Below are positions 6,258 through 32,931 of a stretch of DNA of 36,206 nucleotides, one piece after another (positions within the stretch are counted from its first letter, which is position 1; each line of letters starts with the position of its first letter). The position numbers were made by a program, and so were the translations under genes. The DNA is from Candidatus Levyibacteriota bacterium (GTDB lineage Bacteria > Patescibacteriota > Microgenomatia > Levybacterales > UBA12049): the NCBI GenBank assembly GCA_023245475.1, contig JAHFKF010000002.1:1-36206 (forward strand), written 5' to 3'. The notes under the pieces are model-generated. The model saw only the letters and a program-made list of their open reading frames with translations, ran no database searches and was not told the DNA's origin.

Positions 6258-7748
6258 CTAAATATTCTTAAATCTATCTTTAATAAATTGCTTTTCCAAA
6301 GAAAGAATTAGCCATGCAGCTTTGGGGCCATGATCTTTGCCTATGAGAACTGTATAAATTGCCCCAAAGGTTTGCTTTCCTGTCAGTCCCATTTCTTTCC
6401 CTAATTCATAAATTTGTGTTTGAAACTCTTCAGCATCCCACTTCTTATCAAGTTCTGTAGCAATTTTTTGCAAGAGCTTTTTTTGTTCATTGGTTAATGC
6501 CTTTGCAGCTTCAGGAAGTTCTTTTTGAATTAAAAACTTTTCTGAATCAGATGCATATTTCTCGATGTATACTCTCGCATACGTTGCCCACTGCTCAAGT
6601 CCCTCTTCTGCAATTTTCTCCTGCATATTTGGCATTTGCACCCATTGGGCAAGAACAGAAAAGCGAACTGGAGGAACGTTCTTTATTTCTAGAATCTGTG
6701 ATAACTCAAAGGCACGAGCTAAATCTGCATCACCTTTTTCAAAGTACGCTTCTGCGGCTTTTTGATATTCATCATACAACTTAGGAATAATATCAGTTCC
6801 TTTTGGATTAAATTCAACAGCTCGATTTGGATCTGTCTTAATCATCAGAAAGCGAGCAACTTCTGGAGGTAATACTTCTAAAAGTTCTGCCCCTGTTAAA
6901 CCAAGCCCTTTTGAAGAAGACATCTTTTTACCATTCCATAAGAAAAATTCATATGCACGTGCCGCTGGTGGTTTTTGATCAAAGACAGCTTGGAGAATAT
7001 TGGCAGCAACTTCAAAAGAACTTCCTTTGGACATATGGTCTTTGCCTGACCATTCAATAGTCACTTTAAATGTATACCACTTTACTGACCATTCAGGTTT
7101 CCACGGCATTTTTGCATTCCCATCAAACGGAGAAATCTTTCCGGTTGTGCCACAACCCTGTGCCCATTTGACAAGATCTGGCAAACAGGTAAATGTTACT
7201 TCTTGTCCATCCCAATCAGTTACTTTAGTCGTTCCTAATTTACCACACGTTGGACAAATTACTTGCAGAGGAAACCAATCATCTTTCAAGGAGTTTTTAT
7301 ACATGTCTTCATAGACCTTGCGGACTTTTGTAACATTATCAAGCATCATTTTGATGCCTGTATTATAGATACCATTTTTGTAATTCTCTGATGCAAGATA
7401 AATCTTGGCGTTAATACCGAGAACCGCAAACATATCTCGCATTTTGGCACCGTAAAAGTCAGCAAACGTTCCATTGCCATCAGGAGATGGTGCCATAAAC
7501 GTTGGCACACCCATATATTGTTTATGCGAGACTTCAATAGAGGCAGGCAGGCCATCGATTGGATCAAAGTCATCAAAACCAAACGTATAGGTGACGTCTT
7601 TTTGTTGCTCTTTAAGAACACGAAAAAGCACATCATGAATAACAGGACCTTTAAGACCACCCATATGAGTAATGCCAGACGGAGTCCACGCATCGTTGAT
7701 CCACTCTTTTCCTCTTCTGTTTTTTAAAAATTCATCTGCCCAGAACAT
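6258..7748 (-). CDS. lysK: Lysine--tRNA ligase, class I (archaeal type)
   Basis: 496 aa. N-terminal FWADE..., TPSGITHMGGLKG (degenerate HIGH), CPTCGK zinc knuckle, GKDH, GKKMSSSKG (KMSKS-type loop), PPEVARFL and YDEY all match class I LysRS. Confidence 0.85.
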   Translation of the reverse strand: MFWADEFLKNRRGKEWINDAWTPSGITHMGGLKGPVIHDVLFRVLKEQQKDVTYTFGFDDFDPIDGLPASIEVSHKQYMGVPTFMAPSPDGNGTFADFYGAKMRDMFAVLGINAKIYLASENYKNGIYNTGIKMMLDNVTKVRKVYEDMYKNSLKDDWFPLQVICPTCGKLGTTKVTDWDGQEVTFTCLPDLVKWAQGCGTTGKISPFDGNAKMPWKPEWSVKWYTFKVTIEWSGKDHMSKGSSFEVAANILQAVFDQKPPAARAYEFFLWNGKKMSSSKGLGLTGAELLEVLPPEVARFLMIKTDPNRAVEFNPKGTDIIPKLYDEYQKAAEAYFEKGDADLARAFELSQILEIKNVPPVRFSVLAQWVQMPNMQEKIAEEGLEQWATYARVYIEKYASDSEKFLIQKELPEAAKALTNEQKKLLQKIATELDKKWDAEEFQTQIYELGKEMGLTGKQTFGAIYTVLIGKDHGPKAAWLILSLEKQFIKDRFKNI

Positions 7749-8779: not shown

Positions 8780-9598
8780 ATGAAAAAAGCATTTATTATT
8801 ATAATCTCTTCGTTATTACTCTCAATTGCTTTCTTTATCGTTTTTCGACTCCTGATTGAGGCTCGTACTCAAAAAGGAGCACTGCAAGTAACAGCCTCCC
8901 CTGAGAGTAAAGTTTATCTTAATGGAGACTTTATCGGCAAAACTCCGTTATGCAAATGTGATGAAACCAATATGATGCAAAGTGGTGAGTATACCATTCG
9001 ACTTGTTCCAACAGATCATACGTTAATGGAATTTCAAGAAAAGATTACTATCTCAGAAGGCGTGCTTACGGTTGTTGACCGAAAATTTGCCAAAGATTCA
9101 CTATCTGAAGGCTATGTCATCTCGTTAAGTAAACTTCCTGATGCAGAAAAGAATGAATTAGTGGTCGTTTCATTTCCTGAACATGCAAATGTACAATTAG
9201 ATTCTGCAGATATTGGAACAACCCCACGTTCTTTAAAAGATCCAACAGAATCCGACCACATTCTAAAAGTTGCAAAAAATGGTTATAAAGATAAAACAAT
9301 CCGTATTAGAACACCATTAGGATATAAATTAACCGTGGCAGTATATTTAAGTACCGTAAGTAACCTTGCTGCACCCATACAAGAAACCTCTGAGGATTCT
9401 GGCCCCACGGTTATGATTCTTGATACCCCAACTGGTTTCCTCCGAGTGAGACAAACAATTGGTGGTATTGAGGTTGGTCAAGTACAACCAGGTGAAACAT
9501 ATCCTCTCATTGATGAACAAGCAGGATGGTATTCAATTAAATTAAAGGATGGAGCAACGGGATGGATAAGTAGTGATTATGCTAAAAAGGAAGAATAA
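8780..9598 (+). CDS. N-terminally anchored envelope protein with two PEGA-like domains and a C-terminal SH3b-like domain
   Basis: 272 aa. TM/signal anchor; VTASPESKVYLNGDFIGKTP and VSFPEHANVQLDSADIGTTPRSL (PEGA-type); GWYSIKLKDGATGWISSDY (bacterial SH3). Confidence 0.75.
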   Translation: MKKAFIIIISSLLLSIAFFIVFRLLIEARTQKGALQVTASPESKVYLNGDFIGKTPLCKCDETNMMQSGEYTIRLVPTDHTLMEFQEKITISEGVLTVVDRKFAKDSLSEGYVISLSKLPDAEKNELVVVSFPEHANVQLDSADIGTTPRSLKDPTESDHILKVAKNGYKDKTIRIRTPLGYKLTVAVYLSTVSNLAAPIQETSEDSGPTVMILDTPTGFLRVRQTIGGIEVGQVQPGETYPLIDEQAGWYSIKLKDGATGWISSDYAKKEE

Positions 9599-9602
9599 AA
9601 AA

Positions 9603-10559
9603 TTACTGAATAAAGTAAATAATCGTAACAACAAGCACAGTATAAATAACAACTGTTAACAATAATGGACGATCAGATAAGAGTACTCGTTCAGGACTTT
9701 CTCCTTCATGGTTCTCATAAATTCGCTGCAAGTATCGCATTAAACCATAAACGACAGGTAAAATAGTTAACATAAGCCATTTTCTGTCTCCTAAGAAATC
9801 ATTAAAAATCATCATATCAAAACCCGTTGGCATACCTTTGGGATTGGCAACAAAGGTAAAAAGAGAATATGAAATAAATGTCGAGGTAGCAAAAAGGGAT
9901 AAATAGACATCAAGTAATTTTTCACTATAATGAGACAATGTTTTTCTGGTCGAAATAACTTGTCCTTTTGCAAGATGACCAAAAAGGGTTAATTCAGAAC
10001 GTCTTTTACCAATAGCTAAAAACAACGATAACGAAATAACTGTTAAAAAGAGCCAAGCTGATAAATGAAATCCAGTAACGACTTCTCCTGCAAAAACTCG
10101 TAACATATATCCACCAGCTAGTGTAAGAATATCGACAATTTCGATATGTTTCAAATAGGCTGAATAGGCAACATGCAAAATAAAATAAATAATCGTAATT
10201 GCAAAAAAGCTAGGGTTAATAAAATAACTTCCAATGAAAGAAGTCGCTGTTAAGATAATCACAATTGCTACAGCAACACCTCTCGATACATCACCACTTG
10301 CAAGTGGACGAAAGCGTTTGAAAGGATGCAGACGATCTTTCTTCGTATCAAATAAATCATTGATTACGTAGATTGCACTTGAAACTGCACAAAAAATTAA
10401 GAATCCATAGGAAGCATCAAGGAAGGACCAAAGATTAAAGAGTTCTCCACTAAAAAGAAGGGAAGCATAAATAGCAAAGTTTTTTATCCACTGACGTGGA
10501 CGAAGCAGACGAAAAATATCACGAAATACTTTTTTCATTCGTTTTCTTTGTAACCGCAT
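9603..10559 (-). CDS. UbiA-family prenyltransferase, decaprenyl-phosphate phosphoribosyltransferase-like
   Basis: 318 aa, about 8-9 TM. RPRQWIKNFAIYA and YVINDLFDTKKDRLHPFKRFRPLASG match the DPPR-synthase subgroup of UbiA enzymes. The start may be the MKK at 10541. It overlaps the upstream gene end. Confidence 0.8.
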   Translation of the reverse strand: MRLQRKRMKKVFRDIFRLLRPRQWIKNFAIYASLLFSGELFNLWSFLDASYGFLIFCAVSSAIYVINDLFDTKKDRLHPFKRFRPLASGDVSRGVAVAIVIILTATSFIGSYFINPSFFAITIIYFILHVAYSAYLKHIEIVDILTLAGGYMLRVFAGEVVTGFHLSAWLFLTVISLSLFLAIGKRRSELTLFGHLAKGQVISTRKTLSHYSEKLLDVYLSLFATSTFISYSLFTFVANPKGMPTGFDMMIFNDFLGDRKWLMLTILPVVYGLMRYLQRIYENHEGESPERVLLSDRPLLLTVVIYTVLVVTIIYFIQ

Positions 10560-11571
10560 GGAGGAAAAATAATCCTCCCCCCGTAATCACTCCAACCATA
10601 ATAATTGCGAATACTTTACTTTTACTCTCAAGGGAGAGAGCCAGTACCCCTAATATAGCAGAGATGCCCCAATAAAACAATGCAATTTGTCTTTGACTCC
10701 AACCCAATTGTAACAATAAATGATGTAAATGTTTTTTATCACCTTTAAATGGTGATTTTTTCTGAATAACTCTTCTCAAAATCGTAAAAACAAAATCTAC
10801 TAATGGAACTCCCATGACAAGAAGTGCAGTTGCTAACTTGGCACTGGAAAGCATTGATGTCACTCCAAGGAGTAAATAGAGAGCTGTGGCACCATACCCA
10901 GGAAATAGTTTTGCAGGATGAAAGTTGAAGAGTAAAAATCCTAAAGCACTTCCTGCAATGATAAATGCTAACTTTGCATCAATAAATTCTCCTGTCCCAC
11001 GAAGGCTAAGAATGCCAATAACAATTGCTGAGATAGCAACAATTCCAGGCATTTGCCCGTCTACTCCTTTACTCCAATTGAGCATATTCATAATCCAGAT
11101 GAGCCAAACTACAGAAATAATAAAGGAAATAATCACCGGAATATGCAAAATTCCTCCAAATGGGTTGGTAATAAATTGAATACTTACACCATTTGCAACC
11201 ACAATAATTGCAACAACAATGTTAAGAAAAAAACGAAGATAAGGAGAAACGTCTTTTGACTTTGCATTTAACCGATCATCAACTAAACCGACAATAAGCG
11301 CTAGCAGTGCTGCGGCAAAAACAGCAATTGTGGTTTGATTGATAGGAAGGAAAAAGATACCGACAAGAAAAACACTTAACAGCAATGGCAATCCTCCCCC
11401 ACGAGGAATTGGACGAGTATGCAATAAAGCAGGATGTTTATGTCGTTTAGGATCATCTATCAATCCTATTTTTTTACTAAGGACAATACATCCCGGCGTT
11501 ATAAGAGCAGTCACCAAAAATGTTAAAATAAATGGTATGATAACGAAATCGTTTGGAAATTGTATCATCAA
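10519..11571 (-). CDS. Glycosyltransferase family 4 polyprenyl-phosphate HexNAc-1-phosphate transferase (WecA/TagO/MraY superfamily)
   Basis: 350 aa polytopic protein. LIDDPKRHKHPALLHTRPIPRGGGL, VDDRL and NMLNWSKGVDG correspond to conserved MraY/WecA motifs. The N-terminal motif favours WecA-like over MraY. Confidence 0.8.
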   Translation of the reverse strand: MMIQFPNDFVIIPFILTFLVTALITPGCIVLSKKIGLIDDPKRHKHPALLHTRPIPRGGGLPLLLSVFLVGIFFLPINQTTIAVFAAALLALIVGLVDDRLNAKSKDVSPYLRFFLNIVVAIIVVANGVSIQFITNPFGGILHIPVIISFIISVVWLIWIMNMLNWSKGVDGQMPGIVAISAIVIGILSLRGTGEFIDAKLAFIIAGSALGFLLFNFHPAKLFPGYGATALYLLLGVTSMLSSAKLATALLVMGVPLVDFVFTILRRVIQKKSPFKGDKKHLHHLLLQLGWSQRQIALFYWGISAILGVLALSLESKSKVFAIIMVGVITGGGLFFLHAVTKKTNEKSIS

Positions 11572-11921
11572 AGTATGATATGCACCGTTTGCACTACAAA
11601 AATAAAAGAGAGTGCTACAATAAGCACCGTTGTCACACTCAGCAAGCGAGAAACTAATGGCGCTCTATCATAGACTTTATTCAAGAAAAAAAGATTTGCC
11701 AAAGAAAATATGCACGCAATCATCACTGGCAAAAAGATTTCTAGACGCGTTCCAAGCCGGGCATCTCCCCAGGGTAGTTGGTTAAATAATGGTAAAAACG
11801 GGGGCAATGAAAGATACACAATGCCCAAGTAAACAAGCTGTGTTACAAAAAGTATAACAGCACTTGTCATCCCCAATTTTATGATTTTATCTGATTTTAC
11901 GTACTTAAAAAGTTCTCTCAT
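11568..11921 (-). CDS. Small membrane protein (3-4 TM), unknown function
   Basis: 117 aa. Overlaps both neighbours (4 nt and 17 nt), so it is embedded in the glycosylation operon. No family recognised. Confidence 0.55.
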   Translation of the reverse strand: MRELFKYVKSDKIIKLGMTSAVILFVTQLVYLGIVYLSLPPFLPLFNQLPWGDARLGTRLEIFLPVMIACIFSLANLFFLNKVYDRAPLVSRLLSVTTVLIVALSFIFVVQTVHIIL

Positions 11922-13416
11922 AAATTGTTGCTCTTTCTAACGAAAATGTTTTCAAATATGAATCAAGTGAAAATGGAAAGCTCGGTGCTTCAGCAAGGAT
12001 GATAACATATTTGGGTCGTAATGTGTTAAGGGATTGTTGTGTTTCCCTAATTGCTTGATTACTTCCACGGATATGATAGGCAACTGTATATTTATTTGGC
12101 GGTAAGGTACCAGACAACGAGTAAATCTGCGCATTATCTCCCCACACAAAGACAACATCATTTTTATTGGTATGGAGTTTTATAAACGAAGCAACTTCGT
12201 AGTCACGAGGTGTTTTACCATCAAAAAAAGCTTGATATGAGGTAATATCTTTCTTCTCCGTTACAAAAAGAATAGCATTTTGATAATATAACACTTTTTT
12301 CATATAACCAGACAAGTGGAAACCTGCTACTAAGGTCGCAGTACTGATAAGAAAAAGGACTATTAGTAATAACTTTTCTCGTACTTGTTTCGTTATCAAA
12401 ATTAAACCAACTAATAAACACCAACTAGGCACCATTACCAACAAATAGTGTGTATAAGGGCGTTGCGAAAAGAAAGCATTAAAGACTGAAAATCCGAACC
12501 ATACTAAAATAAATAACGCAGGACGCGAAAGCGAATTACGTTTTAAGAAGAGTATAATCATAGAGATAAGAAGCAAAAGTATTTTGAGTATCAAAAAACC
12601 TTGAGGAATAATCAATTTATTGCCATACCCAACATAGCCAATATTGCCAAATAGTACTGCTTGTATAAACGAGTCAAATGTATTGGTTGCGAAAAAATAA
12701 AGACAGGTAACAATAACCGGAAGAAGAAATCCAGCAGTGAGAAAAAGAAACTGATGCAGCAATGGCCTTATCCAAACAAGTTGGGTATGAATACCTTTTG
12801 AGAAATGTTTTGGTAAACCAACTAATACCAAAAAGAAAAGCATAGTCGCAAAATCAAAAATCGCGACAATCTTAAATAAGAAGGCAACCCCGAGCAAGAC
12901 ACCTGCTATAAGAAGCGCCCAACGAGGAGTGAGTACTGTAAATTGTTTTTGTTTATCAACCAATCGATAAATCAGAAATCCAGCGGCAATAACAGGAAGT
13001 AAAATAAAATTTTCGGCATTGGCAATATTGCCCTCAATAAGTGGTGTAGCAAAGAGTAACGTAAATAACAAAGAAGTAAGGACAGCAACGGGTGCGTTTT
13101 TCAACAATCGCTTGGACAAAAAAAAGAAGATAATCAAGGATAAAAGTCCTACAATTAAAGAGGCACTTCGTACCCAAAACTGATCACCATCAAAAAGAGC
13201 ATACGTTATGTAAAGAAATGGTGGCTTATTATCCCAAGCCTCACTATATAACATTCGGCCACTGTGCATTGCTTGTCCCAGTACTTGATATATACCTTCA
13301 TCACCATACCAATTCGGCTCAATAAGGGAAGGCAAACGGAGAAAAAAGAACAGTACAATAATTCCTAAAAGAAACCAACATGTTTTACTTTTTTCAAGTT
13401 TGGTTAAGAGATTCAT
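11905..13416 (-). CDS. GT-C fold membrane glycosyltransferase (GT39/GT83, ArnT/PMT_2-like)
   Basis: 503 aa with more than 10 TM. The N-terminal LRLPSLIEPNWYGDEGIY...AWDNKPPFLY is the typical first-loop DE/KPP signature of polyprenyl-phosphate-sugar-dependent GT-C enzymes. Confidence 0.75.
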   Translation of the reverse strand: MNLLTKLEKSKTCWFLLGIIVLFFFLRLPSLIEPNWYGDEGIYQVLGQAMHSGRMLYSEAWDNKPPFLYITYALFDGDQFWVRSASLIVGLLSLIIFFFLSKRLLKNAPVAVLTSLLFTLLFATPLIEGNIANAENFILLPVIAAGFLIYRLVDKQKQFTVLTPRWALLIAGVLLGVAFLFKIVAIFDFATMLFFLVLVGLPKHFSKGIHTQLVWIRPLLHQFLFLTAGFLLPVIVTCLYFFATNTFDSFIQAVLFGNIGYVGYGNKLIIPQGFLILKILLLLISMIILFLKRNSLSRPALFILVWFGFSVFNAFFSQRPYTHYLLVMVPSWCLLVGLILITKQVREKLLLIVLFLISTATLVAGFHLSGYMKKVLYYQNAILFVTEKKDITSYQAFFDGKTPRDYEVASFIKLHTNKNDVVFVWGDNAQIYSLSGTLPPNKYTVAYHIRGSNQAIRETQQSLNTLRPKYVIILAEAPSFPFSLDSYLKTFSLERATIYERTF

Positions 13417-13422
13417 ACTGAG

Positions 13423-14916
13423 CTAAACCTTTTCTGTCACTTTATATTCTAACCGTTTCCCAAACATTAATTGTGTATGAGAAATGAGAGCAGGCAAAGC
13501 AGATAAGAAAAAGCCAATAATTGGCATCAGAAGAAATTCAAAAGGGAAAAGTAATTTTCTATAGAAAGGGAGATGTTGATTTGCTGGGCGATTTTTGTAA
13601 TCAAGATAGAGCATTGCAAGGAGTGCCAATAAACAAAGGTTAAGAATAAATCCAGCAAGCTGTGGCAAGCTATACCCAAGAGCAGTACGTGAATAAACAG
13701 GATTAATCACCGCCATGATGTTTGCTGCAACAGTAATCACAAACCAACTGACAGGCCACAAAATGTGACTTAATAAAACATGAAAAACTAAATTTGTCTT
13801 ACGCCAGAATGGCACGCAAGGAACAGTAAGCCACCACTTAATAAATAACGGATTATCAGAAACACCCCAGGACCAGCGTCTTTCCTGCGTATATTTATTT
13901 TTCAAACTACTTACATACCCTGGGGATTGAGCAGCATCCATTGAGGTTTTGAGAAAAATTGGCTCGACCCATAATTGCCCCTTCTTTTTAAAGAATGTCT
14001 TAAAAAAGATTCGATAATCCTCAGGAATAACATCAACATCCCAGAAATCTACCTCTTTTAACAGTCTCATTGAAAGTGTGTAGGTAGATTGCGTGATTAA
14101 TCGATCACGCTGTACGAGAAGTGAAATCTGATACAAACTACCAAAGAATGAAACCACGCGGGTTGCAGCAGGGACTTGCCAATTATTATTGTGGAAGACA
14201 ATTGCTGATTGCCAGAATTTATTGTAACGTTTTGGATCTTTCAGAAAGAGATATGTAAGATATGCAAAGTATTCTGTATGAAAAATCGAATCAGCATCAA
14301 CTGAGGAAATTGTCGCAAAATTTGCATCATACTTACCACTCTCAAAAAGAAGTCTATATGCTTGACGGCCACCATACGCTTCATTTGATGACTTACCTTT
14401 TACTTCTCCTTCAACATCAGGATGATATGTCGCAAAAATGCTCCCGAAGGTATCTTTGAATTCATTAATCAAAATTTTTGCCCGATCTTTGGCTTCTTCT
14501 TCACGCTCTTCCATAGCAAGAACTATGTGAAGATTTTTACGAGGGAATGACTGTTTACTCAAAGCATCAAGGGTAACTCGAATCTTCTCCGCTTTCTCTT
14601 TATAATTGGGGATAATTAATACATGTTGCACTTTATCGCAATCAACAAACGCTTGCGCTTTATCATACCAATCGATCTTCTCTGCTTTTTCAATGAGCTT
14701 ACTGGATTTAAAAGCATTGACAACAAGATTTGATGACTTATAAAACCAATACAAATCAAAAAAGAGGATAAAATAGGCAAGCACTGTAGGAATAAAAAAA
14801 GAGCCCCACAATGGGAACAGAATGACAGTCCAAGCAATAAATCCTGGTAAGATCTCCAAGGCACGCCGTGTCTTATTTGGATACCTCGTAAATAATCTGT
14901 CGAAGAAACTTGTCAT
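13423..14916 (-). CDS. Membrane-integrated processive family 2 glycosyltransferase (cellulose/chitin-synthase-like)
   Basis: 497 aa. VLIIPNYKE, SSVDADS (DxD) and QERRWSWG (QxxRW) motifs, flanked by N- and C-terminal TM helices. Confidence 0.8.
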   Translation of the reverse strand: MTSFFDRLFTRYPNKTRRALEILPGFIAWTVILFPLWGSFFIPTVLAYFILFFDLYWFYKSSNLVVNAFKSSKLIEKAEKIDWYDKAQAFVDCDKVQHVLIIPNYKEKAEKIRVTLDALSKQSFPRKNLHIVLAMEEREEEAKDRAKILINEFKDTFGSIFATYHPDVEGEVKGKSSNEAYGGRQAYRLLFESGKYDANFATISSVDADSIFHTEYFAYLTYLFLKDPKRYNKFWQSAIVFHNNNWQVPAATRVVSFFGSLYQISLLVQRDRLITQSTYTLSMRLLKEVDFWDVDVIPEDYRIFFKTFFKKKGQLWVEPIFLKTSMDAAQSPGYVSSLKNKYTQERRWSWGVSDNPLFIKWWLTVPCVPFWRKTNLVFHVLLSHILWPVSWFVITVAANIMAVINPVYSRTALGYSLPQLAGFILNLCLLALLAMLYLDYKNRPANQHLPFYRKLLFPFEFLLMPIIGFFLSALPALISHTQLMFGKRLEYKVTEKV

Positions 14917-15731
14917 AGGTTAAATATAGTATAGACATTTTTGTCAGTCTGTTCCACTATCTCTTCAAAGGAGACGTTTTTTATGCGGGCAATAAAACGT
15001 GCCGTAAGTATAGCAGATGCAGGCGTATTTCGCTTACCGCGATCAGGCATAGGCGTTAAATAAGGACTGTCTGTTTCAATAACCAAACGTTCAAGCGGTG
15101 TTTTCTCAATCAAATCAGTCAGAGGCAATGGCTCTCCAGGAGGCGTGCCTGCATAGGTTGTATTGCCATCAAAGCCTACTGAAAATCCAAGATCAAGTGC
15201 TTGGTAAAGACTTTCAAGACTCCCAGCCATACAATGAAACATACCCGGTACATCAAGGAGCAAATGTTTGTGTGCTTTCAGAATTGCTAAGGTAACTTTT
15301 CGAGCTTCATCGGTACGTGTATGAATCTGTAACGGCAATTTCTGCGAGTGAGCAAGCTCAAGTTGCTGGATAAAAATCGCTTCTTGTATAGCAGGGTTAA
15401 CAATACCGTTTGATTGATACGAATAGTAATCAATGCCGCATTCGCCAATACCAATCACTTTGGGATGCTTTGCTAATTTTTCTAGTTCAGCAATCCAGCC
15501 TTGCTCCTCAGGATGCATTGTGGTCACTTTGTCTGCGTGATGTGGATGGACGCCAATAACCGCATAAAGTCGTTCATACTTTTCAGCCAAATCAACAGCC
15601 CACTTGCTTGAAGATACTTGGGTACCCGTATTGATGATCGTATGCACACCAGCTTTTTTTGCTTCTGCAATTACTGCGTCGTAATCTTCTTCAAATGAAT
15701 GGAAATTGAGATGACAATGTGCGTCTATCAT
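14913..15731 (-). CDS. TatD-family metal-dependent hydrolase/DNase
   Basis: 272 aa. MIDAHCHLNF, GVHPHH, IGECGIDY, ETDSPYL. Confidence 0.9.
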   Translation of the reverse strand: MIDAHCHLNFHSFEEDYDAVIAEAKKAGVHTIINTGTQVSSSKWAVDLAEKYERLYAVIGVHPHHADKVTTMHPEEQGWIAELEKLAKHPKVIGIGECGIDYYSYQSNGIVNPAIQEAIFIQQLELAHSQKLPLQIHTRTDEARKVTLAILKAHKHLLLDVPGMFHCMAGSLESLYQALDLGFSVGFDGNTTYAGTPPGEPLPLTDLIEKTPLERLVIETDSPYLTPMPDRGKRNTPASAILTARFIARIKNVSFEEIVEQTDKNVYTIFNL

Positions 15732-15734
15732 AGA

Positions 15735-17186
15735 CTATGATAATCTGGGAAATAATGAAGAGCTACTAACAATGGTAGGACCTGCAAATTGCTTGGCAAT
15801 CTTTTCAGCAGTGTCAGGAAGAAATGGCCTGAGAAGAATTGCAACTTCCTGAATTTCATCAACACAGTGTGCTAGTACACTTTTGAGACGATCAGTATCT
15901 GTTTTTGCTAATTTCCAAGGCTCTTCTTCATTAATATATTTATCCAACTGTGCAATTTTTTGCCATACAAAACTTAATGCATCAGGAAATTTAAATGCTT
16001 CTAATGCTGCTACATAATCAGCATCATCCATAATGTGCCCGGCTTCCCCTCCTTCAGAACTCATATGTGTGTAGTTACTATTTTCACAAAGCTTTGCGAC
16101 ACGAGCAACGACGTTTCCTAATCCATTGGCAAGGTCGGCATTGTACGAAAGCTTTAATTTGTCTTCTGAGAAGTCTCCATCAGCAAATGGGGAAATATAA
16201 CGAAGACAATAATATCGTAGAGGATCAATACCATACGCCTTAATCATCTCAATTGGATCAATCACATTTCCCAAGGTCTTTGACATTTTTTGTCCGTTAA
16301 CCGTAATATACTCATGCACAAACAATTGTTTGGGCAGGGCTAACCCCGCAGAAAGAAGAAATGCTGGCCAGTAAACTGCGTGAAAGCGAATAATACCCTT
16401 ACCAATTACCTGAATATCTGCAGGCCACCATTTCTTATAATTCTTTTCATCCCATCCAAAACCGATACCACTCTGATAGATGTTAAGGGCATCAAACCAT
16501 ACGTACATTCGTTGCGTTGGGTCACCTGGGACAGGAATTCCCCAATTCTTGGCGCGAGTATTGCTTCGAGAGATACTAATGTCTTGTAAGCCACGTTTTA
16601 CGAAAGCAACCACCTCATTTTTACGAAACTCAGGTGTAATACGAAGCGTATTTTTCTCAAGAATATCTAAAATTTGCTCTTGGTATTTTGATAATTTAAA
16701 AAAGTAATTTTCTTCTTCTACTTCATCAAGTTTTTTCCCTGGATGTTCAAAGCATTCACCATTTGCATCAAGCTCTTCTTTGTCATAAAACATCTCACAA
16801 CCAACACAATATAGACCGGTATATTTCTTTTTATAAATATCACCATTCTTTGAGCATAGTTCCCACAATTTCTGTGAAGCCGGATAGTGATGGAGTTTAT
16901 CACTTCCTTTTTGCCAGATGTCATAGGTTGTCTGTAGTTGATTAACCAAATCCACAAACAAATTATTATTGGTATCAATAAACTCTTGAATTGGCTTGCC
17001 TGCTTTTTCCGCTGCTTGCACATTTTTAAGAGCATTTTCATCTCCACCACAAAGCTTGGTTACGTCTTCTCCCTTTAACCGGTGATATCTGGCAATAACA
17101 TCGGTTTGAATGAATTCCAGTGCGTGACCAATATGCGGTTTTGCATTAACATAAGGAATTGCAGTGGTGATATAAAACTTGGTCAT
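15735..17186 (-). CDS. metG: Methionine--tRNA ligase
   Basis: ITTAIPYVNAKPHIGHALEFIQTDV (HIGH), CxxC knuckle (YCVGCEMFY), KMSKTLGNVIDP. The ORF opens at 17231, but MTKFYITT (ATG 17186) fits homologues and removes the overlap with the upstream gene. Confidence 0.9.
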   Translation of the reverse strand: MTKFYITTAIPYVNAKPHIGHALEFIQTDVIARYHRLKGEDVTKLCGGDENALKNVQAAEKAGKPIQEFIDTNNNLFVDLVNQLQTTYDIWQKGSDKLHHYPASQKLWELCSKNGDIYKKKYTGLYCVGCEMFYDKEELDANGECFEHPGKKLDEVEEENYFFKLSKYQEQILDILEKNTLRITPEFRKNEVVAFVKRGLQDISISRSNTRAKNWGIPVPGDPTQRMYVWFDALNIYQSGIGFGWDEKNYKKWWPADIQVIGKGIIRFHAVYWPAFLLSAGLALPKQLFVHEYITVNGQKMSKTLGNVIDPIEMIKAYGIDPLRYYCLRYISPFADGDFSEDKLKLSYNADLANGLGNVVARVAKLCENSNYTHMSSEGGEAGHIMDDADYVAALEAFKFPDALSFVWQKIAQLDKYINEEEPWKLAKTDTDRLKSVLAHCVDEIQEVAILLRPFLPDTAEKIAKQFAGPTIVSSSSLFPRLS

Positions 17187-17202
17187 AATAGCTTCGATTG
17201 TA

Positions 17203-17511
17203 TCATCTCTTTCGATAAAAAAGCAATCCAAGCATGAGGAAAAGTGCCAAAAGAAGAATCAGAAAAAATGGATGCGTAAGATTATTTAAACGAAAAATAA
17301 GAATGGTGACAATGCAACTTCCCAAAAGGGCGCCATATTTTTTCTCTCGAAAAAAAACTGTTCCCAAAAAGAAACAGAAGAAAAAAAGAAGAAAGAAAAA
17401 AATTGGGATAAAATATGAAGATGGTGGAACAATAACAATAAGCGCCGCACTTGCGACAACGCATAAGATACTCGCAACAATAAAAATAAGTGGAGATTTT
17501 CTTCTACGCAT
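17203..17511 (-). CDS. Small Phe-rich polytopic membrane protein, unknown function
   Basis: About 102 aa from MRRRKSPLIF (ATG 17511), 4 nt downstream of the stop of the Cys-rich gene. Hydrophobic stretches include IPIFFFLLFFFCFFLGTVFF. The longer ORF start (17547) would overlap the upstream CDS. Confidence 0.5.
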   Translation of the reverse strand: MRRRKSPLIFIVASILCVVASAALIVIVPPSSYFIPIFFFLLFFFCFFLGTVFFREKKYGALLGSCIVTILIFRLNNLTHPFFLILLLALFLMLGLLFYRKR

Positions 17512-17515
17512 ATTA

Positions 17516-17986
17516 CTAGCGCACACAACAGAGTGTGCCTGCTGCACAGTCCTTTTGCCCCTGAGCTACTCCTCCCGTACCTCTACACGCCTGTCCGTTA
17601 CTACAGGCACCTCCGAGATCAGCACATGTCGCAGCCGTAGCTGGATTGGTCTTGCCTGCCGGAGTTGCCCCCGGAATTCGCAAGATATCTACACCAATTA
17701 ATTCGAGAAGAACAAACGAGAAGACAATAAACAACAGTCCGATGACAACTGCAACGAATTCTTCTCTCCCCTGCTGCAGAGCTTCAGGTTTTCCTTGTGA
17801 GGTCATCATTCGATATCCTGCTCGCATGAAGAGTAATAAGCCTATCCCTCCAACCATTGCAAACAAAACCCCAAACGTTGTTGTAATAAATCCTGCGGGA
17901 TCTGTCTTTATATCCCCAAATGCAGTAGCCACAGATGAGCATCCTCCACTAGCATACGCTACACATGGTGGAGAGGGGGGAAGAGG
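17516..17986 (-). repeat. Paralogous 3' gene segment (copy A) shared with 18776-19249
   Basis: The encoded ~155 aa (from PLPPSPPCV to the end) are roughly 85-90% identical by eye to copy B. The segment contains a 65-nt identical tract (17634-17698 = 18897-18961). Confidence 0.85.
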
Positions 17987-18727
17987 AAGAGGTTTAGGTG
18001 TCACGGCTCCCTTTTTTCGAGCAGTATCTAACGCATCTTTTGCAACACAGCTTGGAGCGGCTGCTGGATTGGTAAATCGATTGATATCACAAACAAGCCC
18101 CTGAGCACTACAACAACTTCCAGCCTGTCCAGGATTCTCAGAACTACAGGTTTCTCCTTTGCCAAGACATGTTGACGTGCATTTTTTGGTTTTACTATCA
18201 CAGGTAAGATTTTGTCCTTGGCAACAGTCAGTATTACTACTGCATGTTTCATTCGATTTTTTACAAGCAACTGAAGTACATGTCCCGGCTGCACCTCCTG
18301 GCGCGGTACTACATTTTAAGTTCTCATTACTACAACAACTAGTATTGCCACCACATACTCCATCAACGTGACTACAAGGAACTTCAGCACATTTGTTATT
18401 GATACATTTAAGATTCTTATTTTGATCACAATTACTATCTTGCGTACATACCGAACCTTTTTGACCTGTGTTAGAGGCAAGGATACAGGTATTTTGTGTC
18501 TGACTTCCTGGTGTGGAATCACAAATAAGGGTTTGAGTTGCATCTCCATCAGGCCTTCTACAACACTCATCGCCAGGACCTGCAATACACCTATCACCAA
18601 CTGCCCCACCTCTTCCGGGCTGCGGCTGTCCTCCGTCATTGCAAACACTCGCCGCATACGCTGATTGTGATGAGAAAAAAATAAACAGGAAAAAGATAGC
18701 TATAGCAGGAAAGAAAAACCGTCTCAT
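17516..18727 (-). CDS. Cysteine-rich secreted protein A: knottin-like repeat head + VirB2/TrbC-like (T4SS-pilin-type) two-helix membrane module + 6-Cys tail
   Basis: 403 aa from ATG 18727. The ORF-track start at 18769 is TTG; ATG 18727 sits in the same context as the paralog start. Signal peptide MRRFFFPAIAIFFLFIFFSSQSAYA. 36 Cys by my count. Helix-loop-helix GFITTTFGVLFAMVGGIGLLLFM-RAGYRMMTSQGKPEALQQGREE-FVAVVIGLLFIVFSFVLLELIGV. Confidence 0.8.
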   Translation of the reverse strand: MRRFFFPAIAIFFLFIFFSSQSAYAASVCNDGGQPQPGRGGAVGDRCIAGPGDECCRRPDGDATQTLICDSTPGSQTQNTCILASNTGQKGSVCTQDSNCDQNKNLKCINNKCAEVPCSHVDGVCGGNTSCCSNENLKCSTAPGGAAGTCTSVACKKSNETCSSNTDCCQGQNLTCDSKTKKCTSTCLGKGETCSSENPGQAGSCCSAQGLVCDINRFTNPAAAPSCVAKDALDTARKKGAVTPKPLPLPPSPPCVAYASGGCSSVATAFGDIKTDPAGFITTTFGVLFAMVGGIGLLLFMRAGYRMMTSQGKPEALQQGREEFVAVVIGLLFIVFSFVLLELIGVDILRIPGATPAGKTNPATAATCADLGGACSNGQACRGTGGVAQGQKDCAAGTLCCVR

Positions 18728-18775: not shown

Positions 18776-19249
18776 TTACTGGGGCACACAACAAAGAGTA
18801 CCTGCCGCACAATCCTTCTGCCCCTGTGCTACTCCTCCAGTACCTCTACATGCCTGCCCGTTACTACAAGCACCTCCTGCATCTGCACATGTTGCTGCCG
18901 TAGCTGGATTGGTCTTGCCTGCCGGAGTTGCCCCCGGAATTCGCAAGATATCTACACCAATCACTTCGAGAAGCACAGAGGAAAAGATTATAAACAGTAA
19001 ACCTACTATTACTGCAATGACTTCTTCTCTCCCTTGTTGCAAGGCCTCTGGTTTCCCTTGTGAGGTCATAATTCGATAACTTGCCCGCATGAAGAGTAAT
19101 AAGCCAATCCCTCCAACCAGTGCAAATAAAACTCCGAACGTTGTGGTAATAAAACCAACGGAATCTGTCTTTAGATCTCCAAATGCAGTAGCAACAGAAG
19201 TGCATCCTCCATTAACAAAAGAGACACACGGTGGAGACGGGGGAAGAGG
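18776..19249 (-). repeat. Paralogous 3' gene segment (copy B) shared with 17516-17986
   Basis: See copy A. Identical 65-nt tract at 18897-18961. Confidence 0.85.
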
Positions 19250-20101
19250 AATAGCTTTCTTATCATCTACTGCTCTACAGGAAACTCCCTGAGCAAGTTT
19301 ACCATCAAAAACGTCATCACGACTAAAGGTAGCAGCCGCATCGTTGTAACAGGATTGATTATCTTCTTTACATGCAGCATTTACTGGATTTTCCCCAGGG
19401 ATAGTACAATGATAGCCATTCTTCCCTTTGCCTTTTACACCAGGAGTCGTACAGGTACAACTAATTGTAGGTTCACACGTACAGGGAAGTTTGCTCATTC
19501 CACAAACTTGCTTACCAGCAAGACAATTAAATCCACCTGGACAGACAGCGCCATTTGTTTTGCAAGTAGTAGGAACGCAAACATTATTTTTGCAGGTCAG
19601 ATCTGTCCCACAGTTGCCACTAGCAGGACAGGCATCACCACTTTTGGCAACACCATTGTCTTGTCTGCTACAAACACCACCATCTGAACATGTTCCTCTT
19701 CCTCCAGAACAAGGAGATGTTGTCACTTTACAAACAAACCCACCTGGACAATCTCTATGCCCTGTAAGATTTTTATCACATGTCTTTGGCACACAGACTG
19801 AATCAGCACCACACTTTAGCCCAGAATCACAACCCCCAGGATCAGCATTCGGTGAGGGACACGCTTGACCTGCAGCAATACCGGCCTTTACACACGTGCC
19901 AGGACAGAGACCTCTGGCACATCTAGCAGTCTCAATACTACACGTAAGGCCACTGTCGCAGTTGCCTTGGCCGCCTGTCGTCGGGGCGGTACAGTTTGCA
20001 CCATCGCCAACGGCAAAAGACGGATTAAGAGGAGCAGAAACAACAAGAAGAAGAACTCCAAAAAGAAAGCCAAACAATAAAAAGAACTGGAGTTTTTTCA
20101 T
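18776..20101 (-). CDS. Cysteine-rich secreted protein B: divergent 4-Cys-repeat head + the same VirB2/TrbC-like two-helix module + 6-Cys tail
   Basis: 441 aa. Signal peptide MKKLQFFLLFGFLFGVLLLVVSAPLNPSFA. 40 Cys by my count. Repeated C..C.(S/G)G(L/F).C...C units. The C-terminal ~155 aa are near-identical to protein A. Confidence 0.8.
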   Translation of the reverse strand: MKKLQFFLLFGFLFGVLLLVVSAPLNPSFAVGDGANCTAPTTGGQGNCDSGLTCSIETARCARGLCPGTCVKAGIAAGQACPSPNADPGGCDSGLKCGADSVCVPKTCDKNLTGHRDCPGGFVCKVTTSPCSGGRGTCSDGGVCSRQDNGVAKSGDACPASGNCGTDLTCKNNVCVPTTCKTNGAVCPGGFNCLAGKQVCGMSKLPCTCEPTISCTCTTPGVKGKGKNGYHCTIPGENPVNAACKEDNQSCYNDAAATFSRDDVFDGKLAQGVSCRAVDDKKAIPLPPSPPCVSFVNGGCTSVATAFGDLKTDSVGFITTTFGVLFALVGGIGLLLFMRASYRIMTSQGKPEALQQGREEVIAVIVGLLFIIFSSVLLEVIGVDILRIPGATPAGKTNPATAATCADAGGACSNGQACRGTGGVAQGQKDCAAGTLCCVPQ

Positions 20102-23623: not shown

Positions 23624-24102
23624 ACTTCGTTTAACAGTGACACAAGTCTGGTTGTTGATTGATTACGAATTTGATCAATGACATCAATCACTTGTGCTCC
23701 AATTTGTGCTGCTTGTCGCTCTTTATGATGACGACTTGCATCCCCTCGTGTTGTAGCGATTATAGCAGGTTTTAGATCAATTACTAGTTTGTCATACTGG
23801 TAATTCACAAACGAATCAGGTAAAGGAATAACATAATCAACCATACACAGACATGAAAGTACAACCGCGCGATCATGTTGATTATTGATTGGGCGATCGT
23901 TGCCTTTTGTTTTTCTAATAGCTGCATCACTTTCAAGAAGAACAACGAGGACATCACCTGCTGCTTTTGCTTTTTCTAAAAATGTAATATGCCCCACGTG
24001 TAATAAATCAAAGCACCCACCGACCAACACAACCCGCTTGTGTTGCTTGTGCAAAAGCGCTGCTTCTTGTATTGCCTGATCAATTGTCACAATCTGTTTC
24101 AT
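23620..24102 (-). CDS. Cytidylyl/adenylyltransferase family protein (RfaE domain II-like)
   Basis: 160 aa. VVLVGGCFDLLHVGHITFLEKAKAAGDVLVVLLESDAAIRKTKGNDRPIN closely resembles the HldE/RfaE C-terminal nucleotidyltransferase domain. Confidence 0.8.
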   Translation of the reverse strand: MKQIVTIDQAIQEAALLHKQHKRVVLVGGCFDLLHVGHITFLEKAKAAGDVLVVLLESDAAIRKTKGNDRPINNQHDRAVVLSCLCMVDYVIPLPDSFVNYQYDKLVIDLKPAIIATTRGDASRHHKERQAAQIGAQVIDVIDQIRNQSTTRLVSLLNEV

Positions 24103-25517
24103 TATTCCTTAGTGCCTCGAAGAAAAATTGCCTGCCACGGACGATAGTTTGATACAAAATTATCTGAAATAACCACTTTTCCATCTTTTTTGACAGTCCT
24201 TGTGAAGAATACATTTGCCCCCGCCGCTGCAAAATCCACTTGCTTTAGTTCTCCCTTTGGAAGTGTTGGATCATCTTGATAGAGAGTTTCCGGTGCGGGA
24301 GATTCTGACGTAATAACTGGTTTAGTCATTACAACTTGTCTGTTATCTTTTGTGCCATACAAATTAAATGTTATCCGTTGGGTAATTGGATCAACATAAC
24401 TTTGAATTAAAATTGAATGCCCCGTGTCGTTTTTAAACTTCAGGTCAACCGACGGATAATAAATTGCCGCGTCAATCCCAGGTCCTGAATCTTGCTCATA
24501 ATATCCTACACGATAAGCATGTGGATGACGCTCAACAATAGGAAGTCCTGCATTAAGCGCTGCACGAAAAAGTGTTGTTGAGACTTGGCAGACACCACCA
24601 CCATCACCAAGCACTGTTTTGCCGTTTTCAATAACATATGCTTGCTTGTATCCCGTCGCTGTTGAAATATCCCCAACGGCCTTAGTGGTAGAAAAAACTT
24701 CCCCTGGTTTAACGATAATGCCATTTAGTCGAGATGCAGCAAGGGTCAAATTGAAAATCCGGTTTTCAATTGAATGCTGAAACAATGAAGTACCTTGTCC
24801 AATAAGTTCTCTGATCCCCATATCTGTTCCTTTACTTGCCGACTCCTTGGGCTTTATCGTATTCACAGGAATCTGAATAGTAATAATTTGTGGAGAGTTC
24901 ATAGATGTTGCAGAAACCGCCTGATTCATGATTTCTTCTTTGATGTTGTTCACATCAACTGCCTTTCCATCCTTAGGAAGCCTGAAGTCAACAACCTTTC
25001 CATTTTGAAAGTTAAACATTGCCTCAACTGGCTTTTTATCAAGTTTTTTAGACAGAGGCGCAAGGAGTTGATTCAAGGTATCTTCCTTATATTGATAAGC
25101 AGGAGAAAGAGGAACCCCTTGCAGATACGCCTGAAGCATCAAGCTCATATTGGCAATGAGATTACTTGCACGACCAACGCTATATGCTTGCTTTGCCAGC
25201 AAACGAGAATCATACCCGAAACCAATTTGTTTGGCAGAAATAGTTGCGGTCATTCCTTCACCTTTTAAATTAAATGTAGTATAACGAAGCAGTTCATTTT
25301 TTCTGTCAAAATAATCAATGACCTCAGCTTGTGTTTTGCCACCAAAATCAATGCCATTGATAGTAACTCCTTCATAAATCAAGTTTGTATGAGTTTGCTT
25401 ATAAACAACGTAGAGAAAACTGATGAAGAAAAATAAACCTACAACTGCTCCAAAAAGAAACCAACTAGAGCTTTTCAAAACGTTTATCACATGTCTTTTT
25501 GTCAATGGGATTGTCAT
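24102..25517 (-). CDS. VanW family protein (membrane-anchored)
   Basis: 471 aa. N-terminal TM; GGGVCQVSTTLFRAALNAGLPIVERHPHAYRVGYY is the VanW core. The C-terminal ~80 aa may be a G5-like domain. Confidence 0.85.
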   Translation of the reverse strand: MTIPLTKRHVINVLKSSSWFLFGAVVGLFFFISFLYVVYKQTHTNLIYEGVTINGIDFGGKTQAEVIDYFDRKNELLRYTTFNLKGEGMTATISAKQIGFGYDSRLLAKQAYSVGRASNLIANMSLMLQAYLQGVPLSPAYQYKEDTLNQLLAPLSKKLDKKPVEAMFNFQNGKVVDFRLPKDGKAVDVNNIKEEIMNQAVSATSMNSPQIITIQIPVNTIKPKESASKGTDMGIRELIGQGTSLFQHSIENRIFNLTLAASRLNGIIVKPGEVFSTTKAVGDISTATGYKQAYVIENGKTVLGDGGGVCQVSTTLFRAALNAGLPIVERHPHAYRVGYYEQDSGPGIDAAIYYPSVDLKFKNDTGHSILIQSYVDPITQRITFNLYGTKDNRQVVMTKPVITSESPAPETLYQDDPTLPKGELKQVDFAAAGANVFFTRTVKKDGKVVISDNFVSNYRPWQAIFLRGTKE

Positions 25518-32280: not shown

Positions 32281-32931
32281 TCAATAGCGGGTACTTGCAG
32301 GCTTTGTGCTGCCAGTAGTAACGACTGGTGCTGTTTGCGTTGTTGATCCTGCTGTGCTAAAGGTAACCAAAGTTCCCATTGCTTCTTTAAGTACTGATGT
32401 AGCAACGCCTCGTGCTGTGACAAGAGATGTTGGTAAGAGTGCTAGCTGCATCTGCTGACCAACTGGTGCTGTCTTTGCTGTAAAGGTAAGTGTTGCGACA
32501 GCCCCGTTTGCTGTGATGTGCTGACTACTTGGTGAGATACCAACAGCATAAGTATATCGACCTGTTTGTGGATTATTTTTGTCAATAAGTACTACTGGGT
32601 TTGAAAAGGATGAACTTGGCGTTATTTTAAGATTGGTAATTAAGGTTGGGTCGTAACCGATTTCTAACTGGACAGCCGTTACTGGATTGTCCGATGGAGC
32701 AAGCATCACGCTGACACTACCTTGCTGTCCTGAGACAACAGTAACTGGATTGGGAGAAAGACTTAAGACAGAGTGAGCAATTGAAGCAGGCGCTGTTTGA
32801 GCAGTTTGTTCTGGCTGCTGAGTTGCACTCTTTGTACCCGTTTTAAGCGCAATAACAAAGAGGACTACGGTTACCAATACCAGACAAACTATAAGGGCAA
32901 GTGTTTTCTTCGGCATATCTGTATTTATCAT
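32281..32931 (-). CDS. N-terminally anchored surface protein with a cohesin-like beta-sandwich domain
   Basis: 216 aa. TM anchor (LALIVCLVLVTVVLFVIAL), a Gln/Thr/Ala-rich linker, then VSVMLAPSDNPVTAVQLEIGYDPTLITNLKI...GAVATLTFTAK, resembling cohesin domains. Confidence 0.5.
   Translation of the reverse strand: MINTDMPKKTLALIVCLVLVTVVLFVIALKTGTKSATQQPEQTAQTAPASIAHSVLSLSPNPVTVVSGQQGSVSVMLAPSDNPVTAVQLEIGYDPTLITNLKITPSSSFSNPVVLIDKNNPQTGRYTYAVGISPSSQHITANGAVATLTFTAKTAPVGQQMQLALLPTSLVTARGVATSVLKEAMGTLVTFSTAGSTTQTAPVVTTGSTKPASTRY

Follow-up and report, generated by a model that had tools for sequence, protein, structure and literature searches.

Knottins are ultra-stable binding scaffolds, nearly all of them known from eukaryotes or the viruses of eukaryotes. 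The KNOTTIN database mentions "bacterial knottins" that were predicted from sequence and have no experimental structure (PMC5753296), and, as far as we could find, no bacterial structure of the knottin fold has been solved. The VirB2-like pilins of Patescibacteria, in turn, are encoded in arrays of 2–11 genes (PMC12102498), which are essential in Southlakia (PMC12102498; PMC10633639). Here we describe two adjacent genes, A and B, from a 36,206-nucleotide stretch of a Candidatus Levyibacteriota genome (contig JAHFKF010000002.1, positions 1 to 36,206; this whole stretch is called the window below) that bring the two together. Both genes specify a cysteine (Cys)-rich head in front of a VirB2-like pilin domain, and three of the five modules in the head of protein A appear to resemble inhibitor cystine knot (ICK) peptides beyond the mere spacing of their cysteines.

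The two proteins share a common plan comprising a Sec-type signal peptide, a Cys-rich head (about 200–230 residues in A and about 240–280 in B), a proline-rich hinge, a two-helix hairpin, a short linker and a six-Cys tail. Protein A is identical to the public entry P0001, with its gene called in two public assemblies, and protein B is identical to the database entry P0004. The region 18047–18643, to which the initial annotation had drawn attention, translates on the minus strand exactly to residues C29–C227 of A, and the Cys spacings that it had assigned to the five modules (17-7-0-12-11, 5-7-4, 6-5-0-6-10, 6-5-0-6-6 and 6-10-0-6-13) are those found. Three or more modules of the form C-x6-C-x(5-10)-CC-x6-C-x(4-13)-C arose in none of 100,000 shuffles of the head, which contains 28 cysteines in all. 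Every one of these 28, along with all five modules, is retained in five orthologues that are 39–48% identical to A. Module 1 is the best conserved among them, its non-Cys identity being 44% as against 27–34% in the other modules.

The likeness to knottins emerges from both sequence and structure comparisons. A module profile (A2), built from an alignment of 24 six-Cys modules from A, its orthologues and five other members of the family, has as its non-Cys signature a nearly invariant leucine two residues ahead of C5. Searched against all PDB sequences, it recovered 26 matches at E≤10, of which only hydrophobin-1 (E=0.48) is not a knottin. DkTx (3.5e-4) and hainantoxin-IV (6e-4) score best, and others include Xt3a, Hd1a, huwentoxin-IV, tachystatin B, asteropsins, PAFP-S, omega-conotoxin MVIIC and ALO3. 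A control profile made from the reversed sequences, with identical composition and a mirrored spacing that is nearly identical, returned a single PDB match at E=1.5. Hence, the match to knottins does not stem from Cys spacing alone. A profile of the whole head matches the double-knot toxin DkTx (E=0.02), with modules 3 and 4 falling on its two knots.

At the structural level, AlphaFold2 predicts for module 4, given the A2 alignment, a fold with a mean predicted local distance difference test score (pLDDT) of 90, in which an antiparallel hairpin of strands 23–26 and 31–34 bears C25 (C5) and C32 (C6). A Foldseek search of the PDB with this single-module model, a check proposed in the initial annotation, produced 65 matches; the 50 listed are all knottins (50/50), among them spider toxins, squash trypsin inhibitors and engineered cystine-knot peptides, and they superpose with aligned cysteines at a root-mean-square deviation (RMSD) of about 1 Å over 30–33 columns. 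The best matches, among them Pn3a (probability 1.00, RMSD 1.1 Å), SGTx1, hanatoxin and VSTx1 (1.0 Å, 32 columns), show RMSDs of 1.0–1.2 Å and TM-scores up to 0.73–0.78. The AlphaFold2 model of the whole head, computed from a 5-sequence alignment, has a pLDDT of 71 (70–86 in modules 2–5), and an identical secondary-structure motif recurs in modules 2–5. As a side observation, a search of BFVD with the module 4 model found its best matches inside large pithovirus "transmembrane proteins" (TM 0.73–0.76, RMSD 1.1–1.4 Å) and also matched a baculovirus conotoxin-like protein, all with weak E-values; membrane-anchored knot-like proteins may therefore exist in giant viruses too.

Variants of the module with fewer cysteines bear on its disulfide pairing. 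Across 132 members of the anchor family, a hidden Markov model (HMM) of the module detected 34 modules with all six cysteines and 18 four-Cys units. The latter, which include module 2 of A and its orthologous copies (patterns -CCxC-/-CCxCC), can be aligned from C2 on, C1 being absent, and keep just one of the two cysteines of the CC doublet. Such joint loss of C1 with C3 or C4 fits a C1–C4 bridge and would leave a two-disulfide hairpin core, the I–III/II–IV pairing of which, as in the disulfide-directed β-hairpin (DDH), amounts to a knot from which the first bridge has been taken away (PMC11891777).

What the initial annotation had treated simply as an anchor is in fact a recognizable VirB2-like pilin domain, which it had missed. 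The hairpin comprises a hydrophobic helix, FITTTFGVLFAMVGGIGLLLF, a basic loop, MRAGYRMMTSQGKPEALQQGREE, and a further hydrophobic helix, FVAVVIGLLFIVFSFVLLELIGV, in a protein with an N-terminal signal peptide. The Pfam model T4SS_pilin (type IV secretion system (T4SS) pilin; PF18895) gives 21.5 bits with A and 20.5 bits with B at a gathering threshold of 26.6, and the anchor of B matches the NCBIfam Mbov_0395 pilin-like family at E=0.008. Searches with phmmer using full-length A and B found 47 and 88 homologues (A, B and the A orthologues not counted), with E-values down to about 1e-35 to 1e-40, most of which are annotated with PF18895. By this transitive homology, the membership of A and B in the PF18895 family can be regarded as secure, since dozens of proteins so annotated are linked to both in the full-length searches, at E=1e-30 to 1e-40. 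A PxPPC motif marks the hinge position in 69 of the 132 family members. The six-Cys tail, which was left out of the initial annotation, is also present in P0008 and P0014 and is absent from the orthologues of the A head.

By analogy with the VirB2/TrbC topology, both head and tail are expected to be extracellular because the signal peptide would be cleaved and the loop is basic. The number of cysteines is even in 51 of 56 heads (p=1e-10) and in 25 of 25 tails of the family. MdbA/VKOR-type oxidoreductases are reported to be enriched in bacteria of the candidate phyla radiation (CPR) (bioRxiv 10.1101/335083), which, together with the even parity, is in line with extracellular disulfide formation.

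Beyond the window, the A head has a narrow distribution. An exhaustive search of 1.84 billion representatives with a profile of the head found only P0002, P0005, P0048 and the fragment P0049, and consequently no deep alignment of the whole head could be had. The orthologues of A include P0002, P0003, P0005 and P0048; the two whose contigs were retrieved, P0005 and P0003, are encoded just upstream of a methionyl-tRNA synthetase (MetRS) gene. The A-type gene is followed by a block comprising a small membrane open reading frame (ORF), MetRS, TatD, GT2, PMT_2, GT4 and UbiA (9603–17511 in the window and 9101–17095 in locus L010). The A head array is thus a tiny, syntenic and lineage-restricted family. 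The PMT_2 protein is a GT-C mannosyltransferase-like enzyme, and as glycosyltransferases are encoded beside a Ser/Thr-rich surface protein, the head might be glycosylated. The small ORF directly downstream of A (17203–17511, minus strand) is very hydrophobic and without a family match, and L010 has a counterpart next to its A orthologue (32 residues aligned at 53% identity).

The anchor itself has a wider reach. Relatives with a name or title are from Levybacteria, Saccharimonadales and "Patescibacteria group" metagenome-assembled genomes (MAGs). A scan of genome collections recovered anchor relatives only, in MAGs of Patescibacteria/Saccharimonadales and a few labelled Gammaproteobacteria or Actinomycetota, which we take to be mis-binned. 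A homology search with the head only came back blank even though the identical protein is in the database and was recovered with the full-length query, as did a head-only scan of metagenome contigs. Filtering for composition or low complexity, rather than absence, appears to lie behind these blanks; since such filters hide Cys/Gly/Ser-rich heads, domains of this kind are probably under-reported.

On this shared anchor, the heads of the family are mosaic: several types of Cys-rich modules occur alongside PG_binding_1, FN3 and β-rich heads with few cysteines, and knot-like six-Cys modules are found on other heads as well (13 of 132 proteins). The hinge-plus-anchor regions of A and B (17669–17986 and 18932–19249) are 83% identical in a comparison of 108 amino acids, whereas the anchor of A is only 51–57% identical to those of its own head-orthologues. 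From the hinge to the stop codon, A and B share 85% nucleotide identity, with 41 synonymous and 21 non-synonymous codon differences. Given this disparity, and a tail that in this comparison only A and B possess, the sequences point to duplication or homogenization (gene conversion) of anchor and tail within the lineage, with the heads being swapped at the PPSPPC hinge as cassettes. In locus L011 (1–1104), from a related genome, the gene upstream of the A orthologue combines the same anchor with a β-rich head with few cysteines; hence, the partner gene of the pair is not conserved. At other loci, long-headed members stand in arrays with short pilins of 100–150 residues, which agrees with the 2–11-gene pilin arrays in the literature (PMC12102498).

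The head of B illustrates a different module on nearly the same anchor. The region 19277–19993 translates, as the initial annotation had it, to C37–C275 of B, with the motifs CDSGLTC, CDSGLKC, CPGGFVC, CGTDLTC and CPGGFNC and two CTC doublets all present. Its description as a distinct four-Cys repeat holds for C37–C209, which contains five C-x(5-10)-C-x5-C-x(4-6)-C units with a G-[LF]-x-C core, three of them with an extra Cys pair. It does not extend to the last 61 residues (C215–C275), which are a separate module type, without a Pfam match, that recurs in 18 of 132 family members (e.g., P0007, P0012, P0015 and P0035). None of the five units fits the knot consensus, and four of them contain a C-x2-[G/P]-x2-C core motif. 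A profile of the unit (A5) found nothing significant in the PDB (Dkk1 0.23, PcFK1 0.61), and the units have no Pfam match at E≤10. The further proposal that A and B carry two unrelated scaffolds can be upheld insofar as the units differ: hhalign of the A module against the B unit gives a probability of 2.4%, and cross-HMM matches reach 0–6 bits. Unrelatedness as such is not demonstrable, because A holds a four-Cys unit of its own and weak cross-alignments place the B unit in register with C2-C3/4-C5 of the A module; on the same low scores, we claim no homology between the two heads. No close orthologue of the B head was found, the best being 33% identical over 89% of its length.

The composition of the A head limits the roles that it could have. 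Its 199 residues (C29–C227) are 14% Cys and otherwise polar, rich in Ser/Thr/Asn/Gly, with one aromatic residue and one His. The modules are joined by linkers of 3–4 residues of Thr, Ser, Val or Ala, and a flexible Lys-rich linker and the Pro-rich hinge precede the anchor. The paucity of aromatic residues and the polar character argue against both a membrane-partitioning mode like that of channel toxins and a sugar-stacking mode like that of lectins. The initial hint at ligands of channels or proteases is accordingly not borne out, the head being unlike the spider toxins with their hydrophobic patch. A chitin- or cellulose-binding role of the hevein, CBM1 or tachystatin type was likewise rejected because aromatic residues are nearly missing.

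We propose that A and B constitute a two-gene tandem array of the VirB2-like T4SS_pilin family of Patescibacteria. Upon Sec export and cleavage of the signal peptide, the two-helix hairpin would be embedded in the membrane, the basic loop pointing into the cytoplasm, while head and tail would lie outside the cell, where their cysteines would form disulfides. The A head would then be a rod of five mini-domains arranged like beads on a string with their 3–4-residue linkers. Modules 3–5, and probably module 1, would adopt an ICK-like fold with C1–C4, C2–C5 and C3–C6 pairing, and module 2 would be an equivalent unit minus the C1–C4 bridge, i.e., a two-disulfide hairpin. In such a rod, modules 2–5 might serve as a rigid, protease-resistant stalk or spacer, and the distal, long-looped module 1 might make contact with another cell or surface. 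The rod could be held directly in the cell membrane, or its protein could take part in a VirB2-type filament as a minor subunit. The B head would present other Cys-rich modules on an equal anchor, the heads being exchangeable cassettes. We regard this account of a pilin-anchored, knot-like displayed rod as moderately probable; its architecture, its family membership by homology, the conservation of its cysteines and the knottin-like sequence signature are direct observations, and from these we infer the topology, the display on a surface or pilus and the binding role.

Several considerations weigh against this proposal. The knot fold and the pairing of the modules are predictions, and AlphaFold2, which was trained on many spider knottins, may have recreated the fold from the Cys framework alone. 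Every Foldseek E-value is weak (≥0.13), which is a consequence of the tiny size of the domain (35 residues), and module 1 has a pLDDT of only 42–66 in the whole-head model. The comparison with Pfam toxin families called for by the initial annotation yielded for module 4 a sub-threshold score with Toxin_12 (PF07740; 14.7 bits, E=0.049, threshold 21), with no match to it for the other modules or the whole protein. No T4SS component was found among the ORFs of at least 120 amino acids across the window, which contains no short pilin genes either; assembly into a pilus is therefore conjecture, and a VirB2-type filament may lack the room for a 230-residue head on each of its subunits. Finally, the polar surface, free of aromatics, gives no indication of a ligand.

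Some of these points feed an alternative in which the heads are disulfide-rich but unknotted, forming laddered β-hairpins or colipase/Dickkopf-, EGF- or granulin-like folds, with the knottin model reflecting AlphaFold2's recall of spider toxins. In the Foldseek search with the whole head, the best matches are draxin, colipase, Dkk and MIT1, all folds made of paired hairpins, and these are mixed with single knottins, DkTx and Hi1a; a single module has a Pfam match to Dickkopf_N at E=0.062. Such weak Pfam matches (Nodulin_late, EB, Dickkopf_N and HNH_3) were put down to Cys content and discounted, and neither the whole proteins nor the single modules reach threshold with any Pfam or NCBIfam family; no known bacterial Cys-rich repeat family matches. 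Loop lengths speak on both sides. The C4–C5 loop of modules 3 and 4 has six residues, as presumably does that of huwentoxin-IV, a solved knottin that both the profile and the module 4 model matched and whose spacing we take to be 6-6-0-6-6. In the published consensus, CX3-7CX3-8CX0-7CX1-4CX4-13C, this loop is X1-4, which modules 3 and 4 exceed, and in knottins it is said not to go beyond 6 residues as a rule (PMC4942781); the other four loops of modules 3 and 4 fit. The second loop of module 5 has 10 residues, and the loops of 17 and 12 residues in module 1 fall outside the consensus. Against an unknotted head stand the single-module structural matches, the almost exclusive recovery of knottins by the profile in comparison with its reversed control and the paired absence of C1 and one doublet Cys from the four-Cys units, and we consider it unlikely. 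The original suggestion of an ICK-like array is therefore upheld for modules 3–5 by the profile and its control, the AlphaFold2/Foldseek results and the Cys-loss pattern, and is not supported for module 1, where confidence in the model is low.

A second alternative accepts the knot-like fold and takes the head for a precursor from which knottin-like effectors (protease inhibitors, toxins or antimicrobials, for example) would be released against the host bacterium; the pilin part would do no more than export or hold it, and the cut would fall in the linker or the hinge. In other organisms, most knottins are secreted as inhibitors or toxins, multi-knottin precursors occur in plants and spiders, and the closest sequence matches of A are venom peptides; the Lys-rich flexible linker and the Pro-rich hinge ahead of the anchor would also suit cleavage. 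However, we see no dibasic or other conserved processing sites in the sequence between the modules, the order and number of which are conserved as a single unit, and the surface chemistry is unlike that of channel toxins. The unrelated PG-binding, FN3 and β-rich domains on the shared anchor further argue for display rather than release, making this alternative distinctly improbable. That the cysteines bind metal (Zn, Fe-S or metallothionein-like clusters) instead of forming disulfides is very improbable, for although their density in the head is high and anoxic habitats are home to many Patescibacteria, the Cys-rich parts follow a signal peptide and lie outside the membrane, the number of cysteines is nearly always even, the head has a single His, the framework and non-Cys signature match disulfide knots and disulfide-forming enzymes are enriched in CPR bacteria.

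The displayed rod also invites a more general idea, namely that the pilin hairpin is a universal display anchor in Patescibacteria for a large, shuffled repertoire of disulfide-rich mini-binders, including a bacterial form of the ICK in multi-knot rods, that these heads set the host of the episymbiont, and that the knot is either independent in bacteria or far older than its venom and defence radiations in eukaryotes. We offer this tentatively and consider it doubtful as a whole.

All the neighbouring genes are bacterial, for which reason eukaryotic contamination was rejected. A 155-residue, Lys/Arg-rich antisense gene in the public annotation (17234–17701, plus strand) covers the 3′ end of A; it overlaps a conserved gene, and the call is probably spurious. 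Genes related to the envelope elsewhere in the window encode a cohesin-domain protein, a PEGA+SH3 protein and a VanW/PG_binding_4/G5 protein, and a further gene encodes a class I lysyl-tRNA synthetase, a form uncommon in bacteria. An Rfam search of the window found no RNA genes. The coordinates of the features are collected in the table.

Table. Features of the A–B gene pair and other genes in the window (TM, transmembrane helix)
Feature	Positions	Strand	Description or evidence
Gene A	17516-18727	minus	403 aa from the Met start of the public annotation; ORF and translation
A signal peptide, residues 1-25 (...SQSAYA/A)	18653-18727	minus	Basic N-terminus, hydrophobic core, A-x-A site; inferred by eye from the sequence
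A module 1 (C29-C81), six Cys, 17-7-0-12-11	18485-18643	minus	Long loops, membrane-distal
A module 2 (C94-C113), four-Cys unit C-x5-C-x7-C-x4-C	18389-18448	minus	pLDDT about 70-78
A module 3 (C118-C150), C-x6-C-x5-CC-x6-C-x10-C, knottin-like	18278-18376	minus	Module HMM 30.9 bits
A module 4 (C155-C183), C-x6-C-x5-CC-x6-C-x6-C, knottin-like	18179-18265	minus	AlphaFold2 pLDDT 90
A module 5 (C187-C227), C-x6-C-x10-CC-x6-C-x13-C, knottin-like, longer loops	18047-18169	minus	Module HMM 37 bits; pLDDT about 78-86
A hinge, PLPPSPPC-x7-C	17939-17986	minus	PxPPC motif, used as the family search pattern
A VirB2-like pilin domain: TM1, basic loop (predicted cytoplasmic), TM2	17669-17938	minus	PF18895 E=2.6e-4
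A C-terminal six-Cys tail (predicted extracellular), C-x6-C-x5-C-x12-C-x5-CC	17525-17626	minus	Sequence
Gene B	18776-20101	minus	441 aa; tandem paralogue of A with a different head; ORF and translation
B head units, C37-C209	19475-19993	minus	Five C-x(5-10)-C-x2-[G/D]-[LF]-x-C-x(4-6)-C units
B membrane-proximal module, C215-C275	19277-19459	minus	CxC...PG...NG[YFW]xC...C...C...GVxC; recurrent in the family
B hinge and VirB2-like pilin domain	18932-19249	minus	PF18895 E=5.1e-4
B C-terminal six-Cys tail	18788-18889	minus	One position differs from the A tail (A for L)
Envelope-related genes and class I lysyl-tRNA synthetase	32281-32931 (-), 8780-9598 (+), 24102-25517 (-), 6258-7748 (-)		

Host recognition is a central open problem in Patescibacteria, and pilin arrays are essential in the single species tested; the large, variable, disulfide-rich and presumably extracellular heads that many family members carry on a conserved anchor are a testable candidate for the part that determines specificity. 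Likewise, a solved bacterial knottin, especially a natural rod of five modules, would widen the known range of the fold and bear on the question whether it had more than one origin.

Set against the described systems, A and B are like the VirB2-like pilin arrays (PF18895; PMC12102498, PMC10633639) in their two-helix domain, in occurring as tandem divergent paralogues and in their restriction to CPR/Patescibacteria. They differ from them in that VirB2 is described as a small protein, whereas A and B are fused to Cys-rich heads and a tail, which the published descriptions of these arrays do not mention, and in that the A/B array lies among housekeeping genes and not beside virB4. The one paper found that brings together cysteine-rich proteins, Microgenomates and pilins deals with a CAP-domain family and type IV pilins and not with heads on a pilin anchor, and our literature search found no knottins linked with Patescibacteria or pilin anchors.

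With respect to the heads, the units of B recall the DDH, colipase, Dickkopf and prokineticin folds, which have four-Cys units with a C-x2-G-x2-C core like CDSGLTC and CPGGFVC (CGEGLSC in Dkk1), although the matches of the B unit to these folds are not significant (E=0.23–2). The colipase fold itself has been described as a pair of DDH units (bioRxiv 10.1101/485722). For A, the nearest counterparts are the spider ICK toxins of the huwentoxin/hainantoxin type (Toxin_12), which share the C-x6-C-x5/6-CC-x6-C-x6-C framework, the Gly before C2 and the Leu two residues before C5, and whose C-terminal hairpin and overall fold resemble those predicted for module 4 (RMSD 1.0–1.2 Å). The double-knot toxins DkTx (Tau-theraphotoxin-Hs1a) and Hi1a additionally have tandem knots on short linkers, as is predicted for A. 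Unlike these free venom peptides with one or two knots, the A modules are domains of a 403-residue bacterial membrane protein, stand five in a row, lack the hydrophobic/aromatic patch and score below the Pfam threshold. We consider convergence with the spider toxins at least as likely as common ancestry. The "bacterial knottins" of the KNOTTIN database (PMC5753296) are, as here, knottin-type frameworks predicted from bacterial sequences. Thus, pilin arrays and the knot fold are each known already, and what is new here is their fusion, the predicted multi-knot rod and the apparent cassette behaviour of the heads.

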